From IMG/VR virus record IMGVR_UViG_3300017700_000931, positions 256,001 to 320,000 of that record: a stretch of 64,000 nucleotides of DNA; one strand, written 5' to 3'. Each line of letters opens with the position of its first letter. Within the stretch, counting starts at the first letter, position 1. This document shows positions 13,073 to 55,886 of this stretch, piece by piece. The notes under the pieces are model-generated. The model searched no databases and had not been told where the DNA came from. It saw only the letters and a program-made list of their open reading frames with translations. The stretch is from a virus (lineage: Duplodnaviria > Caudoviricetes). The position numbers and the translations under genes are program-made.

Positions 13073-13370
13073 GAATAGATTTGAATAGGGTGTTTAAATC
13101 AAGACCCAGCGATGTATTAAAATATTTCTCTTCTGGTACTAGAGTACCTAATGCATTAGCCCAAACTAAAAGCCTTTTGTAAGTTGTTTTATCACCCATA
13201 TAAAAGAATTCTTTATTGGATTCAACTTCATCAATTGAAAATATGTATTGCTTTGTGGTATCATCAGGTTCATTATAATAATATTTCTCATCTAATGATA
13301 GATAGAATTCTGTCCCAAGTGGACAATTAGGTAACGATTGCTTTAGCGTTATGATTTGGTGCTTACTCAT
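13059..13370 (-). CDS. LPxCPxG-family paralog 4
   Basis: LPNCPLGTEF...KQYIFSIDEVESNKEFF. Confidence 0.85.
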   Translation of the reverse strand: MSKHQIITLKQSLPNCPLGTEFYLSLDEKYYYNEPDDTTKQYIFSIDEVESNKEFFYMGDKTTYKRLLVWANALGTLVPEEKYFNTSLGLDLNTLFKSIHDAG

Positions 13371-15011: not shown

Positions 15012-15339
15012 AATTTTCCTTTATGTTTTTCTTTCTGAATTCTTCAATATCTTCAGTCTTTATTTTACCAGCCGCTACATTCTTACCTAGGGCCTGAAGA
15101 TAACCTTCTTCTTCAATATCACCTAGGAAGAAAAATTCAGAATTATATACAACTTCTTTAACTGAGAAGATGTATGCTTTTAGCTTACCACTTATAGCTT
15201 CTTCATCAGTCATTGAGTGATAGTAATGATTGCCATCAACGGTTAGTTTAAACAATCGCCCAACCGGACAATTAGGTAATGCTTTTTTGACCATTACGAT
15301 TTTAGGTGGTTCAAGTAATTCTTTTGGAGGATTTGCCAT
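15001..15339 (-). CDS. LPxCPxG-family paralog 1
   Basis: LPNCPVGRLF...KAYIFSVKEVVYNSEFF. Confidence 0.85.
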   Translation of the reverse strand: MANPPKELLEPPKIVMVKKALPNCPVGRLFKLTVDGNHYYHSMTDEEAISGKLKAYIFSVKEVVYNSEFFFLGDIEEEGYLQALGKNVAAGKIKTEDIEEFRKKNIKENYED

Positions 15340-26070: not shown

Positions 26071-26820
<750 letters not shown>

Positions 26821-26824
26821 AGTA

Positions 26825-27349
26825 TCAAATATATTGAATTATTTCTTCTTGTTTAATTTCTTTAATCGATTCATCCATTAAATACAGGTTCATTTTATCG
26901 TATACAATAATGGAATAGTACTTATCGTCTACCTTGTAAATCCGGTGTGCGCCATCTTTAACCCATTCACCCTCACCAATTAATTCAGCCTCATCATTAT
27001 GAATCTTCTTCAATGCGATATTAATTGGATTGGCCAATTCTGCTTGAATTCTAGTTATCTTTGCATCGAGTTTTAAACCATCTAAAACTCTTTCACAGAT
27101 AAGTCTATCAGCAAATAAATCAATTTTATGAATTAACTCTGACTTCTTAGATTTTTCCAGAGCATGCTCTACCCAGAAACCTCTACCACAAATGTCCAAC
27201 AAATCATTTTTAATTTGAAGTATCTCGGCTTTGTTTTTTTGAGTATAAACTTCGTATTGTTTTATACGAGTTCTGATGTTCTCCAATGAAGCAACATATT
27301 CATCTAGTGAAGTCTTTAATGATTGTAAATTGGCTAAACCTTGTTCCAT
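26825..27349 (-). CDS. coiled-coil hypothetical protein (start corrected)
   Basis: ORF track, second Met. Confidence 0.7.
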   Translation of the reverse strand: MEQGLANLQSLKTSLDEYVASLENIRTRIKQYEVYTQKNKAEILQIKNDLLDICGRGFWVEHALEKSKKSELIHKIDLFADRLICERVLDGLKLDAKITRIQAELANPINIALKKIHNDEAELIGEGEWVKDGAHRIYKVDDKYYSIIVYDKMNLYLMDESIKEIKQEEIIQYI

Positions 27350-31406: not shown

Positions 31407-31448
31407 GTGACAAATATAATGATTAATTTTGATTCCACCAAATAAATT

Positions 31449-31942: not shown

Positions 31943-32977
31943 TTATTTCGTTAGTGTATTAACCTCAATCTTCTTTGATATCCAATGGCCATGTGAATTA
32001 TTAATCAATTGTCTAAACTCTGGCCGGACAAACTTAGCTACTGACCTTCTAAAATCAATATAATTAAATTCATCTGCAATCCTCACAACATAACCCTCAT
32101 TAGTCTTCTCATGATTGCTGAATGCTTCTATAATACTATCCTTATCATAGATACCATCATAAATTACTGGTACCATTTCAAGACCAAGTATCTTAGAGTA
32201 TTCAACTGTTTCATCCCAAGATAAGCATCTATTATCCATCCACATCGAAAACATCATAAAGTACGATTTAAGATTATCATACTTTACTGTGTGAACAGCA
32301 TACAAGTTCTCACCACAAATACGCATATTATCATCGAGCATATACCCAATTTGAGACCATAAACCTTTCACCCAATTGCGTGTTTCATGTGAGGCAGTTT
32401 CTAATGACCTAGCATGGATGTAATCATTATACATGGTGGTATTTTCACCATCCATCTTAAGTGATACAATAACCCTCTTACCAATGAAATGGCTATCATC
32501 TTTTAATATCCGGTCATCCTTTAATAAATGACTCCAAGGTAGGTGATATGTTCTAGGATATTTAACATGTTTTTGGAATAGGTCTAAGACACCGCCTTGT
32601 TGGAGAATTCGTTGTACTGATTCATCGTAGAATAATTCGCCTTTGATTCGTAGTCCGGTTGGGGTTATGATGTTACCCCATTTATCGTATGTGTAATCTG
32701 AATAGAAATGCTCTGGTAATACAATATTTTCTATACCAATTTTATTTCTAATTTCATCACAAGTGAGTGTTGTTTGTTCAGCTTCGATATGGTGTTGTTC
32801 ACAAAGGGATGCACCGTTGTTTAGATAGTAACCACCATCATGAAATAATCTACGTTCTATGATATGGTGAGCGTCCTTGGCTGGATTACCACAAATGATA
32901 CATTTGAAACCATCTCGTTCAAATGTTCCATTTCTAAATTCATCTCGTGATATGAGTTTATTTTTTTCGATAATCAA
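31943..32977 (-). CDS. ATP-dependent RNA ligase (Rnl2-like nucleotidyltransferase) with an N-terminal HNH domain
   Basis: KYPRT.HLPWS, motif I KMDG, RICGENL, FMMFSMW, EGYVVR, VAKFVR; N-terminal CIICG..AKDAHHII...NGASLCEQHH. Confidence 0.85.
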   Translation of the reverse strand: MIIEKNKLISRDEFRNGTFERDGFKCIICGNPAKDAHHIIERRLFHDGGYYLNNGASLCEQHHIEAEQTTLTCDEIRNKIGIENIVLPEHFYSDYTYDKWGNIITPTGLRIKGELFYDESVQRILQQGGVLDLFQKHVKYPRTYHLPWSHLLKDDRILKDDSHFIGKRVIVSLKMDGENTTMYNDYIHARSLETASHETRNWVKGLWSQIGYMLDDNMRICGENLYAVHTVKYDNLKSYFMMFSMWMDNRCLSWDETVEYSKILGLEMVPVIYDGIYDKDSIIEAFSNHEKTNEGYVVRIADEFNYIDFRRSVAKFVRPEFRQLINNSHGHWISKKIEVNTLTK

Positions 32978-33335
32978 TTATTTCTTCACCTTTATCATGG
33001 TTACACTCATAACAAAGTGTTTGTAAATTATTCTTTCTATTCAATCCACCTTTAATTAATGGTATGATATGGTCAATAGTAAGTGGGTTATTTTTGGAAC
33101 CAACAGACAAACACTTTAAACAAGCATTTCCATCACGTTTAAAAATGTTTAGTCTAAGAGATTTTCTAACCCGATTTTTTTTTGGCCGGATACCATATTT
33201 GAAATTTGTGTTTATTGTGTTTGGTATTTCAATTAGTCGTTTTGGTTTTTTGACTAATGGGTAAGGTGTTTCATCAACATTACCACAATTATAGCAGACA
33301 TATCTGATAAATTCATGCCCACACGAACACAACAT
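32958..33335 (-). CDS. HNH endonuclease
   Basis: IFKRDGNACLKC...LTIDHIIPLIKGG.N..NNLQTLCYECN..K. Confidence 0.9.
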   Translation of the reverse strand: MLCSCGHEFIRYVCYNCGNVDETPYPLVKKPKRLIEIPNTINTNFKYGIRPKKNRVRKSLRLNIFKRDGNACLKCLSVGSKNNPLTIDHIIPLIKGGLNRKNNLQTLCYECNHDKGEEIIDYRKK

Positions 33336-33336
33336 A

Positions 33337-33567
33337 TTATTGTTCGTTACGAAGTTTACAGAATTTACAGTTACCCTTATGGGTTAAAAAATCGGCTTGA
33401 CTACTAATGTTAGTAACACGCCCAATATATTCACAACTATCTATTGTGTATGTATTGAGTGTTCTACCATCAATAACGATATCTGTTGTTTCAACACTAA
33501 CATTAGCATTGGGATAATCACATGATGTGATTACTAGCAATGAAATAAAGAGTATAATTGTTCTCAT
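33337..33567 (-). CDS. putative lipoprotein
   Basis: LLVITS-C lipobox. Confidence 0.7.
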   Translation of the reverse strand: MRTIILFISLLVITSCDYPNANVSVETTDIVIDGRTLNTYTIDSCEYIGRVTNISSQADFLTHKGNCKFCKLRNEQ

Positions 33568-33589
33568 ATTATAATATTATTTAAAAAAT

Positions 33590-33809
33590 GTTACTTATAA
33601 AACGTCGGATTCGTAAAAACTAAGTAACTTTTCTGTATGATGTTTTTAGCACCCAAGGTATCTTCAAGGAATAAATTCCTACATGAACACCAAACCTCCA
33701 CAGAAAATGTTTTCGTTCCAAGTACAGATGAAATGTTTATACCGCTACTCAAGTTATGTCGTTTCCGAGCTTTCTTTTTTGCAAGAGGAAGTAAGATACT
33801 GACCTCCCC
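33590..33809 (-). ncRNA. ~220-nt structured RNA candidate with a loop-to-distal pseudoknot
   Basis: 7-bp 5' hairpin whose loop GTATCTT matches distal AAGATAC; 8-bp, 7-bp and 8-bp further helices; a TCG-GAAA-CGA tetraloop. Confidence 0.5.
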
Positions 33810-33823
33810 ATTCACTGTTTAAC

Positions 33824-33953
33824 TGGTGTGCCACAAGGGAATCGAACCCCACACTTTCCCAGAACAACGCTCCGTCGAGCCTTTCATCAGGTTACCCCGT
33901 ATATTATTGTTTTAACATAGCTGTCCGGCCCACTAAAACTCAATATGCAGCAC
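33824..33953 (-). ncRNA. 130-nt tRNA-shaped RNA with encoded CCA and an enlarged anticodon domain
   Basis: GTGCTGC/GTGGCAC acceptor + ACCA, TTCGATT T-loop, CCGGA/TCTGG stem enclosing ~60 nt. Confidence 0.75.
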
Positions 33954-33960
33954 AAGTAAA

Positions 33961-34079
33961 AGATTGGTTCCCATTAAAAGTATCCATCAGCTCAACAAAG
34001 GGCCTCGTGTCCCAAAAAAGCAGATACTCCGTTCTTTATTTCTTTATTTTATTTGCTTGATTCGGTAAGGAACCAATCT
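33961..34079 (-). ncRNA. 119-nt structured RNA candidate
   Basis: AGATTGGTTCC/GGAACCAATCT 11-bp closing stem; internal AGTATC/GATACT helix. Confidence 0.5.
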
Positions 34080-34083
34080 TTTG

Positions 34084-34184
34084 TGGGCGCAGAGGGATTC
34101 GAACCCCCATCACTCTCATAGAAGTTGGACCAGTTGCAACTGGTTTTCCCCCTCAAGTCGACATCCCCTTAGTCGCACACGCCC
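34084..34184 (-). tRNA. atypical 101-nt tRNA-like gene (possible GCA anticodon in an extended, bulged arm)
   Basis: GGGCGTG/TGCGCCC-A acceptor, CGAC/GTCG D-arm, GGGGG-TTCGAAT-CCCTC T-arm; non-canonical middle. Confidence 0.65.
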
Positions 34185-34218
34185 AAATTAAAAAATAATG
34201 ACACCCATTTCTAAGTGG

Positions 34219-34661
34219 AATGATTAGCAAGGCATCAAACATCCAAGCACCCTATTTAGTTATCTCTATGGTAACGTTTTAATCATCTTACAATAAACAA
34301 CATCACCTTAGCGTGATTATAACGAATGGATTTGGGCCTTTAATGTCAGTCGCACGACGTGTTATATCCTCACCACTCCAATTCCGTACCCCCTAACTCA
34401 GATATACACCTGCTGACCATTACGTTTAACAGGGTCGCCAATTTCGGCTTAATTTTCATCTGAGGATTGGTTGCATCTATTGTTTGTTACTGCTTATCTT
34501 CAGTAGTCATTATTTTTATGAGTGAGTATGACGTATGCCGTCCTTTGGATTTACCCGCAGACCAACGGTTCTCTCACCCATGTTTTTATAAAAATAGAAT
34601 CACTTTCATAATCAGGACCATTTTTATTCGGTGTGCCTCACCAACATGATTACTAATCACT
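34219..34661 (-). ncRNA. ~440-nt large multi-helix RNA candidate
   Basis: End-to-end 10-bp + 6-bp pairing with G-U pairs on the minus strand; internal 9-, 7-, 6-, 6- and 5-bp helices; no long minus-strand ORF. Confidence 0.65.
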
Positions 34662-34697
34662 ATCTATTTTTCAATACTTCAAAGAACTATTCTATTG

Positions 34698-34787
34698 TGG
34701 CGATACTGTGAATCTAACACAGTTTTGCAAAAATTACAGAATCAGTATCTGTGTCATCTAGCCGTCCTAACATTAGACGATACCGCC
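34698..34787 (-). tRNA. atypical 90-nt tRNA-like gene (Glu/Gln-type body, CTG in the anticodon hairpin)
   Basis: GGCGGTA/TATCGCC-A acceptor, GTC-TAATGTTAG-GAC D-arm, 10-nt insertion, ACAGA-TACTGAT-TCTGT, CTGTG-TTAGATT-CACAG. Confidence 0.6.
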
Positions 34788-34792
34788 AATTA

Positions 34793-35754
34793 TTAATTAT
34801 ATTCTAGGATATTTTCAATTAAAACATCCCCAACTTCATTTTCAAAATCAATATTCTTTATGATGGTTTGATTCTCCAAAACCAATACATCATGTTCATT
34901 GAGGGCCATCACTCTTCGTGTTGGTTCACCGTCCTGATAAAGGTCAAACACCATTCCTCGTTTCATCACCAAGTTATTCATTACCTGTTATTCGCTTCCA
35001 TATAACTCCAATCAATAAGCAAATTGCTCCAATGATTAAAAGTTCTAGAAATGTTATATCACAAGGAAGTATCATAATATTTTAATCAATTACTACAACA
35101 CCAATGTTATTATCAATACAAAAATTTTGAATGGCTTCATCAAATAATGTTATATCGCCAAACATCCGGTAGACTCTAAGTGTGTTTGCACTTGGGGAAT
35201 ACTTACCATCAAAATGAACACAAGTTCCATTTACTTCAATTCGTTCTTGTCGGTAGGTTTTTCTATCGTCTTTCATTGGTTCATTTATTTTGACAAAGAT
35301 AAGTAGAAAATTTCAATCTACCAAATAAAAATCAAAATAATTTACAACAATAATAAAACTAATGCAGCAAAGCCGGATAATACATAGGCTGTAATACCAA
35401 CACTAATAACTCCATAACCAGTAAATCTGAGTTTTAATTCTTTAAAACCGCCATTATATAGGTCACTAATAACCCAATTAAATGTCCAGAAAAGTACTGG
35501 TATCATCCATGCAATCAAATATTCATCTTTCATTTTATGTTGTTTTAAATAACTACTTCACCATCTTCATCCAGTTCACACCACTCTTGAACACACTCAT
35601 CAAAAGTTTCTTCATCATCACAATCTGAATATGTAAAGATTCGACCATTCCAATAACATACCATCATTTCAGTTTCATTCCATTCAGGACATTTTACTAG
35701 ATATTTGGTATCTACTTTTAATTGATTTTCAGTATTAAATCTATGTTTGTACAT
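34793..35754 (-). CDS. small hypothetical proteins (34793-34981, 35082-35276, 35342-35533 membrane, 35545-35754)
   Basis: ORF track. Confidence 0.7.
35294..35325 (-). promoter_or_regulatory. promoter upstream of the ncRNA island
   Basis: TATCTTTG 35294-35301 and TTTG 35322-35325 on the minus strand, 20-nt spacer. Confidence 0.85.
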
Positions 35755-40162: not shown

Positions 40163-40236
40163 GGGCCTTTAGCTCATTCGGTTAGAGCAACTGACTCATA
40201 ATCAGTAGGTGGTTGGTTCGAATCCGGCAAGGCCCA
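40163..40236 (+). tRNA. tRNA with CAT anticodon, probably tRNA-Ile2 (lysidine type); elongator Met not excluded
   Basis: Full cloverleaf GGGCCTT/AAGGCCC-A, GCTC/GAGC, ACTGA-CTCATAA-TCAGT, TTCGAAT; C4-G69 and C5-G68 are the known TilS determinants; no encoded CCA. Confidence 0.92.
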
Positions 40237-43905: not shown

Positions 43906-44091
43906 AATATGGAGGTAGCTGAAAATCCTAGATAAGAGTAGGCAAAACAAATAAATCACATTATGAAAACTTTTTTTAAAAATGTATTTACGATTGCAAC
44001 AGGAATTATTGTTGCACTTGTAATTATAGGTGGGATTGTTGTGGCTGTCCTTTATGCTACAAATCCTAATCTAATGAATTATTAGTAAATC

Positions 44092-55529: not shown

Positions 55530-55569
55530 AAATTTGGTGAATTGAAATATTATCTCTATCTTTGGCCCC

Positions 55570-55812: not shown

Positions 55813-55870
55813 TGCGTGGTAGCTCAGTGGTAGAGCTTTTCGCCGGATGGTTCGATTCCTCCCTACGCAA
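55813..55870 (+). ncRNA. 58-nt tRNA-like RNA lacking the anticodon arm
   Basis: TGCGTGG/CTACGCA-A acceptor, TA-GCTC-AGTGGTA-GAGC D-arm, 8-nt linker, GGATGG-TTCGATT-CCTCC T-arm. Confidence 0.75.
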
Positions 55871-55886
55871 CAATTAAATTTAAACT

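Follow-up and report, generated by a model that had tools for sequence, protein, structure and literature searches.

A conserved, non-coding island with tRNA-derived elements within a predicted, promoter-headed transcription unit of a jumbo phage

For the tRNA genes of phages, the usual explanations are codon usage and escape from anticodon nucleases. Why would a phage also carry tRNA-shaped elements that do not decode? The question is raised by positions 33590-34787 (here, the island) of a stretch of 64,000 nucleotides (nt) (here, the window), which comprises bases 256001-320000 of the IMG/VR record IMGVR_UViG_3300017700_000931. The source record has 362,532 bp with direct terminal repeats and thus represents a jumbo phage. 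An earlier reading of this DNA (the original prediction) had described the island as six self-pairing elements on the minus strand, here E1 to E6 in the order of transcription, lying behind a promoter and ahead of genes for a lipoprotein, an HNH endonuclease and an HNH-RNA ligase fusion, and had proposed that RNAs, nuclease and ligase form one system. Our analysis shows that the island is non-coding, tRNA-derived, conserved, and located inside a predicted promoter-headed unit. It differs from ordinary phage tRNA genes in that a phage with 57 tRNAs also keeps non-decoding tRNA-shaped RNAs, under apparent purifying selection, interleaved with conserved non-coding pieces and missed by standard finders. 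As to its function, we give about an even chance to the reading that its tRNA mimics, which do not decode, and its small RNAs are transcribed together and then excised by RNase P and RNase Z of the host.

That 33590-34787 lacks a convincing gene was borne out. Across window positions 33568-34792 the longest open reading frame (ORF) has at most 74 amino acids (aa) on either strand, and none was recorded by any gene caller. Six-frame translations of the island found nothing similar by tblastn in the phage's own genome or in any fetched locus. A 1-nt indel separates the island from that of a relative, L049, and 6 of the 8 substitutions in the only long ORF of E6 fall at codon positions 1 or 2, a pattern unlike that of coding sequence. 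The GC content is 0.40-0.45 across 33700-34500, while the genes on either side have about 0.32. The minus strand folds more strongly than the plus strand does; the folding z-scores of the elements are modest, from -1.0 to -2.7.

Three of the elements, E1, E3 and E5, have tRNA acceptor and T arms and none has a canonical anticodon arm, as the original prediction had stated. They were scored with R1, a covariance model that we derived from 37 class-I tRNAs of this phage and ran with all filters switched off. Over about 300 kb of the rest of the genome, R1 found no non-tRNA sequence of at least 17 bits outside the real tRNA arrays, and the E1 and E3 shells (19.3 bits, E = 9e-4, and 21.7 bits, E = 1.5e-4, respectively) are therefore well above background. 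E1 (34698-34787, minus strand) is a 90-nt shell: its acceptor stem has 7 bp, U8 and a D arm are present, and its T arm carries the T loop TTAGATT. Its anticodon arm measures about 10 bp, a 5-bp stem with a 7-nt loop being placed atop an extra 5-bp extension with internal loops, and its apical loop (UACUGAU) has an A at the position of U33. The nearest paralogue of E1 is the phage tRNA-Met(CAT) at genome position 56118. E3 (34084-34184, minus strand) is a 101-nt shell derived from tRNA-Val(UAC), in which the acceptor, D and T arms are intact and the anticodon arm is swapped for a three-segment helix of about 43 nt ending in CCAGU-UGCA-ACUGG. The T arm and 3' acceptor strand of E3 (23 nt) are identical to those of tRNA-Val(UAC) of Dokdonia, Formosa, Tamlana, Algibacter and related genera, and its 5' acceptor strand shows just two differences from the flavobacterial tRNA-Val(UAC), both of them wobble-forming. 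E5 (33824-33953, minus strand) is a tRNA-like RNA of 130 nt, in which R1 detects the T arm only (11.3 bits) and the acceptor and T arms were read from the sequence: a 7-bp acceptor stem (GUGCUGC/GUGGCAC), the T arm UGGGG-UUCGAUU-CCCUU (GGGGTTCGATTCCCT; T loop TTCGATT), A73 and an encoded CCA. Between acceptor and T arm it holds a long hairpin at the position of the D arm and two small hairpins, and its T arm and encoded CCA resemble those of the phage tRNA-Ala at 30443.

All three shells combine a 7-bp acceptor stem with a 5-bp T arm carrying the consensus T loop. None has the 5-bp anticodon stem and 7-nt loop (with U33 and R37) of a tRNA at the usual distance from the elbow, or reaches the Rfam threshold; their arms extend over 10-14 bp or are branched. 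Because the anticodon arm is 10-14 bp long or replaced, the shells are taken to be non-decoding. Two other identities were considered and dropped. (i) As intron-containing tRNAs, the elements gave forced, poor models in ARAGORN with introns allowed and a lowered threshold, with "introns" at 32/33 and mismatched stems. (ii) The inner domain of E5 contains CUGAUGA...GAAA; for a hammerhead, as for a YrlA-like permuted tRNA, required elements are missing and Rfam gave no support. As a separate observation on the tRNA-Val(UAC) sequence, a Dokdonia sp. locus (L089:940-1030) contains a third copy of its 3' half, with an unrelated 5' part and no ARAGORN call, which may be an integration-site remnant.

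Do these elements belong to a known RNA family? ARAGORN and Rfam, the latter at gathering thresholds and at E<=10, returned nothing in the island except a 17-nt T-loop match to tmRNA; the sole ARAGORN call was a tRNA-Met at 40163, outside it. The outcome that would have counted against the original prediction, all elements matching ordinary Rfam families, was not seen, since none matches. The tRNA-like acceptor/T-arm domain with a replaced anticodon arm is shared with tmRNA, YrlA and b7a-tRNA, and E5 has a CCA end as tmRNA does. For tmRNA, however, only T-loop matches of 13-17 nt were obtained (10.5-10.9 bits versus a gathering score of 47), and the tmRNA mode of ARAGORN found none in the genome and no tag ORF. 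Unlike YrlA, the shells do not have permuted ends, and there is no Rfam Y-RNA match. A long, ORF-free, GC-enriched stretch beside tRNA-like genes in a phage also recalls GOLLD, ROOL and HEARO, but a cmscan of 33300-35400 at E<=10 gave no match to these, or to group I introns, RNase P RNA or 6S RNA, and E2, the longest of the elements, is not conserved as a unit. By the tests made, the island is not a member of the tRNA, tmRNA, Y-RNA, GOLLD or ROOL families. It also had no blastn match among the INPHARED phages; searches of IMG/VR, JGI metagenomes and GTDB genomes for exact patterns of E5 returned 0 matches, and no island copy was found in IMG/VR, JGI metagenomes or INPHARED.

Near relatives were obtained from Logan assemblies, reached via the flanking small proteins, and together with the window they make three lineages: lineage A (L049/L050) at 93-98% identity and lineage B (L070, equal to L071 plus L042) at 86-96% identity. 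IMG/VR queried with the HNH protein and the 62-aa ORF upstream of the island yielded no close relatives. The comparison reveals a mosaic. E3 is found in all three lineages, and so is E2a (34575-34677, minus strand), that is, a spacer and the first ~87 nt of E2, which shows 91% identity in L070 and includes two hairpins, a small one (GGUG-AGGCA-CACC) and a long one with a GAAA tetraloop at its tip. The remainder of E2 together with the next spacer, E2b (34190-34574, minus strand; ~386 nt), is ORF-free and without an Rfam match at E<=10; it is present in lineage A and missing from lineage B (L070/L071), the junction being a GGGYG microhomology within the 5' acceptor strand of E3. E1 has suffered a 77-nt deletion between GTATCG repeats in lineage A, where a stub is left, and is absent from lineage B along with the 64-aa and 62-aa ORFs. 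E4 (33961-34079, minus strand) is a 119-nt hairpin that folds with a perfect 12-bp closing stem and an AT-rich interior; it is identical in L049, whereas in L042/L070 it has 68 nt, another interior and a 7-bp closing stem. In E5, the 3' ~100 nt are 100% identical across the three lineages, whose flanks differ by 4-14%, while an inner patch of ~30 nt differs from the window by 12 changes in lineage A and 13 in lineage B. E6 (33590-33809, minus strand), a conserved non-coding segment of 220 nt, has 3 substitutions in L049 and 7 in L070. Thus, the six-element tiling of the original prediction holds for the E1, E3 and E5 shells and does not hold for E2, which is composite, with only its first ~87 nt in all three lineages, or for E4, whose interior (119 versus 68 nt) is not conserved.

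The rate of change argues that much of the island is constrained. Between the window and lineage A, synonymous divergence (pS) in 14 flanking genes is 0.174 (127/734 synonymous sites) and nonsynonymous divergence (pN) is 0.025; pS is 0.113 in the four genes just upstream and 0.055 in the adjacent 62-aa ORF. Without the E1 deletion and the E5 patch, the island differs from that of lineage A by 12 substitutions in 1094 nt (0.011, or 1.1%), about 10 times slower than the synonymous sites of the flanking genes, and a binomial test gives p < 1e-13 even against the value of 0.055. E2 as a whole (E2a plus E2b) accounts for 8 substitutions and the 1-nt indel, of which 7 substitutions and the indel lie within E2b. 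In lineage B, E6 differs by 3.2% and the 3' part of E5 by 0%, compared with a pS of 0.124 in neighboring genes. Stem changes were checked by hand, and most of those that can be placed keep pairing. In E3 these are C-G to U.G in the acceptor stem, C-G to U.G in the apical stem, and G.U to G-C in stem II; in the GAUUAU-GAAA-GUGAUU stem of E2a, two changes (A-U to G.U and U.G to U-A) keep pairing; the acceptor stem of E5 in L042 and the 5' hairpin of E6 each show G.U to A-U. The hypervariable patch of E5 is the distal part of its long hairpin, whose topology is held in all three versions; the changes within the patch include several wobble conversions and a single true compensatory pair (U17-A43 to A17-U43). 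There is, from these comparisons, good evidence for purifying selection on E2a, E3, E5 and E6, with no particular fold proven.

These data bear directly on the view that the island is a decaying tRNA mini-array, in which E1, E3 and E5 are pseudogenes with anticodon-arm insertions and the rest is functionless spacer. The genome tolerates many aberrant tRNA-like genes (see below), and the losses listed above (E1 deleted in L049, E2b missing from L070, the E4 interior replaced, the E5 patch hypervariable) are compatible with decay, as are modest z-scores and the frequency of 7-bp closing stems at tRNA-like spans, which is that of chance (51 observed versus 51 in shuffles). The ligase of relatives, moreover, is often found beside true tRNA arrays (L005, L008, L010 and L026). 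Decay does not account for an island evolving about 10 times more slowly than the synonymous sites of its neighbors, for 3' ~100 nt of E5 that are identical in three lineages with flanks 4-14% apart, or for stem changes in E3, E2a and E5 that mostly preserve pairing, and we regard it as unlikely, though with a real share of the probability. A related reading of E2 as a string of decayed tRNA units with 7-bp closing stems was dropped because such stems are at chance level; for the whole element (443 nt), the minus strand gives a z-score of -2.3 and the plus strand one of -0.8.

Several points weigh against a functional cluster of RNAs. One long-arm position of E3 becomes a mismatch in L070 (G.U to G.G), where the D loop is also 4 nt shorter; two changes in E2b disrupt pairs of the minimum-free-energy structure; and alifold on E6 gave no double-sided compensatory change, with two changes disrupting predicted pairs. 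Overall, the three lineages yield one double-sided compensatory pair, that of E5. E1, E2b and the E4 interior are each dispensable in some lineage, which fits decay too. The spacers are conserved as much as the elements and the per-gene pS ranges from 0.055 to 0.39 along the genome, so that a recent recombination tract could lie behind part of the low divergence of the island. Finally, cleavage by RNase P is something that we infer from acceptor/T-arm geometry alone.

What, then, drives expression of the island? The motif TTTG-N20-TAnnTTTG, which we take to be the Bacteroidota -33/-7 promoter type, has 31 copies in the window versus 3.3 expected, a count reached by no shuffle. The consensus of the family is TTTGGTAGATTnAAATATTnTAyTTATaTTTG, and the strand of its copies tracks gene orientation (further examples are at 31411-31442 on the minus strand and 55533-55564 on the plus strand). 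A perfect copy at 35294-35325 (minus strand; TTTG-N20-TATCTTTG) heads the transcription unit of the island, and the promoter that had been claimed at this position is therefore real, being one of the 31. Because the next minus-strand motif lies only at 31411-31442, the island, the lipoprotein gene, the HNH gene, the ligase gene and a 163-aa ORF make up one predicted transcription unit, in line with the earlier placement of the island on the minus strand ahead of these genes. A scan for sigma-70 promoters and terminators remained at chance level and was replaced by the Bacteroidota-type motif. The promoter at 35294-35325 is kept in L070, where it directly abuts an ORF-free region: an unrelated segment of ~300 nt (L070:2062-2357) follows right after it, where the window has the 64-aa and 62-aa ORFs and E1, with no match to the genome of the window or to Rfam. 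The promoter motif family, a lipoprotein with an SC lipobox, and the 23-nt identity to the flavobacterial tRNA-Val(UAC) point to marine Flavobacteriaceae as the host.

On the favored reading, of a cluster of tRNA mimics and small RNAs that is cut out by host enzymes, a long, early-type transcript would start at 35294-35325, to judge from the motif. Host RNase P would cut 5' of the acceptor/T-arm minihelices of E1, E3 and E5, and RNase Z or 3' exonucleases would trim their 3' sides; RNase P and RNase Z normally act on minihelices of this kind (7+5 bp, with RCCA in E5), so that the transcript is probably cut at the shell boundaries. By these cuts, the mRNA ahead of the shells (64-aa and 62-aa ORFs), the RNAs in between (E2a/E2b, E4 and E6) and the mRNA downstream would come apart. 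Stable RNAs of tRNA shape would also be set free, in which the elbow and the acceptor end are retained and which do not decode. More speculatively, the shells might also occupy tRNA-binding host factors, as E3 is the top half of a host-type tRNA-Val(UAC) and E5 ends in CCA. Of the roles that had been proposed for the shells, processing punctuation or decoys are the most plausible.

tRNA-like processing signals have precedents in the t-elements of plant mitochondria, the mascRNA of MALAT1, the tRNA-miRNA units of MHV68, and the intergenic motifs of Bacteroidales phages (DUF2693-FD/skipping-rope class). The island shells resemble them as acceptor/T-arm mimics without a working anticodon that stand between other RNAs or genes and are open to RNase P or RNase Z. 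They differ in size and architecture (90-130 nt with elongated central arms, whereas the known mimics are minimal, at ~50 nt), in that their cleavage is predicted, and in having no Rfam match. If the shells are processing handles, the tRNA punctuation of organelles and herpesviruses also operates in bacterial viruses. Among phages, the nearest parallel is the T4 tRNA region, from which small RNAs of unknown role, RNAC and RNAD (species 1 and 2), are made (PMC3014915). Both cases present non-tRNA small RNAs in a tightly packed, co-transcribed phage cluster with tRNA or tRNA-like genes. Unlike the T4 region, the island is 220 kb from the main tRNA arrays, its tRNA-shaped members are non-decoding, and it has no sequence match in INPHARED.

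Should the shells act as decoys in the first place, they would mimic the top half of a host tRNA (in E3, tRNA-Val) and soak up a tRNA-directed defense nuclease or a tRNA-binding factor, with the turnover of modules reflecting an arms race; this would be a new counter-defense principle. It would explain why the T arm and acceptor strand of E3 are identical to those of a host-type tRNA-Val(UAC), why lineages of 86-98% identity differ by gains and losses of modules, and why the E5 patch is hypervariable, and it would suit a phage that invests heavily in tRNAs and has two RNA ligases. Known anticodon nucleases, however, recognize the anticodon loop, which is missing from the shells; no defense partner has been identified; and the identity to tRNA-Val may just reflect a captured tRNA gene, as the phage's own tRNA-Val(TAC) has the same T arm. 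We therefore consider the decoy role doubtful as the primary explanation. About as doubtful is a bolder version, in which the island is a modular, fast-evolving "tRNA-mimic operon": non-decoding copies of the top halves of host tRNAs would, together with companion small RNAs, be freed by RNase P and soak up, as decoys or sponges, a tRNA-directed defense or a tRNA-binding factor of the host. Module turnover and the E5 hairpin would record an arms race, and the island would be one example of a broader class of tRNA mimics lacking an anticodon, as yet undescribed, in jumbo phages.

E6 calls for separate consideration, for it lies directly upstream of the next gene and ends 22 nt before its start codon. 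It could be either an RNA domain or a 5' leader. That part of the island, above all E6, is a cis-acting leader that controls or stabilizes the downstream mRNA would fit this position, and relatives retain E6 even though the gene that follows it has been exchanged or truncated. That gene, on the minus strand at 33337-33567, encodes a 76-aa lipoprotein (signal peptide with an SC lipobox) and is a variable neighbor: in L049 an unrelated 87-aa ORF replaces it, so that the gene downstream of E6 differs, and in L042/L070 it is truncated. A leader would leave E1 to E5 unexplained, and no riboswitch or leader family matches and no covariation in E6 was found; as an account of the island it is improbable.

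Is the island one system with the nuclease and ligase that follow it? The free-standing HNH endonuclease gene (32958-33335, minus strand; 125 aa; PF01844, 6.9e-12) is accessory. The ligase gene (31943-32977, minus strand; 344 aa; PF09414, 2.5e-28, 99.8 bits versus a cut-off of 27) does encode the HNH-RNA ligase fusion that had been proposed, with HNH and PF09414 in one protein. It aligns to phrog_24030, the HNH-Rnl2 ligases of jumbo phages, over positions 2-341 of 342 (2.7e-126), of which it is a full-length member with motif I KMDG (KxDG type) and an N-terminal HNH motif (CxxC...HH...HH). It shares 45-55% identity with proteins of Salicola SCTP-2, Ralstonia RsoM2USA, Caulobacter CcrSC and Acinetobacter ME3, and phmmer found no match among PDB sequences. 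HNH-Rnl2 fusions in jumbo phages have already been described and read as tRNA-repair ligases (Iyer et al. 2021, PMC7824862).

According to the original prediction, HNH and HNH-ligase would cut, join or circularize the island RNAs; in an alternative that we considered along with it, the tRNA-like RNAs would be cofactors of the ligase, like YrlA or b7a-tRNA beside RtcB. Such an arrangement is suggested by the single predicted transcription unit in this phage. YrlA and b7a-tRNA adjoin RNA ligases, and tRNA-like RNAs in such a position have been proposed as repair cofactors (bioRxiv 10.1101/312249). Moreover, in 5 relatives the loci of the ligase family lie near tRNA arrays (L005, L008, L010 and L026, within 6 kb) or a tmRNA gene (L021:7760-8104, within 800 nt after the HNH-Rnl2 ligase gene). 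But the combined system does not survive comparison with relatives, in which ligase and HNH fail to co-occur with the island. Lineage A (L049) keeps E2 to E6 and HNH and cleanly lacks the ligase gene, the 163-aa ORF starting 2 nt past the HNH stop (L049:5328-5340); in the window, the ligase cassette is flanked on both sides by AAATAA. Lineage B (L070/L042) keeps E2a, E3, E4, E5 and E6 and lacks both HNH and ligase beside the island, since a deletion from window position 33423 to 29785 has removed the 3' end of the lipoprotein gene, HNH, ligase and further genes. Conversely, no island sequence is present in 26 IMG/VR loci with this ligase (47-82% identity), an R1 scan of 5 of the 26 found no tRNA-like shell within 6 kb, and when the island was compared by blastn with the ligase loci and with five complete records of related jumbo phages, only T loops matched. 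Nor does the 362-kb genome contain TROVE, Band_7 or RtcB genes (PF05731, PF01145 and PF01139; control genomes were positive), so that a ligase cofactor of the YrlA/b7a-tRNA type has no partner here. A second Rnl2-type ligase ORF of the phage (PF09414, 351 aa; G000:C1:43232-43810, locus L053) lies between tRNA arrays, and no tRNA-like element was found within 9 kb of it, which is a further point against the proposed system; we judge that system to be highly improbable.

The HNH and HNH-Rnl2 genes are better viewed as independently gained or lost accessory cassettes, a joint system with the island being unsupported by the comparison. Because both behave as mobile cassettes, their adjacency to the island is here no evidence of a system. 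The T4 tRNA region also houses homing-endonuclease genes, and the HNH and ligase cassettes resemble such homing-endonuclease-type genes settling in phage tRNA regions. The job of the ligase is likely to be general tRNA repair and not island processing, which the proximity of ligase loci to tRNA arrays and tmRNA fits. The protein itself is ordinary, and what is new about it is only its cassette behavior between phages of 94-97% identity.

The shells do not stand alone among the tRNA-like genes of the phage. Besides the 57 tRNAs called by ARAGORN, the genome has about 16 further non-canonical tRNA-like genes in arrays (14-45 bits), located at 9-70 kb of G000 (loci L045-L048 and L054-L057). They include a tRNA-Lys(UUU)-like gene whose D arm is followed by 18 inserted nt (13136-13223), one with a hairpin inserted in the D loop (26786-26874), D-armless forms (15043-15110 and 67522-67588), and genes of class-I identities with long variable arms (Thr, 88 nt; Met, 87 nt; Cys, 87 nt; Asn, 89 nt; Ile, 85 nt), usually beside a canonical copy. 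On present sequence comparisons, the island shells are the most extreme case of a remodeling of tRNA genes that is seen family-wide. A further element lies in the window at 55813-55871 (plus strand): it has 59 nt, with acceptor, D and T arms and 4 nt in place of the anticodon arm, and scores 32.4 bits with R1. With a 78-aa ORF on either side and the promoter motif of 55533-55564 upstream, it is a candidate mRNA processing signal and would suit a phage in which tRNA-like elements generally serve for processing. At 421-477 of the window (plus strand) there is also a weak tRNA-like match (14.8 bits, E = 0.026) with acceptor, D and anticodon arms and no T arm. Apart from tRNA-like elements, a DUF805b RNA motif (RF02914) was identified at 43909-43944 of the window (plus strand), with a score of 41.7 bits, above the gathering threshold.

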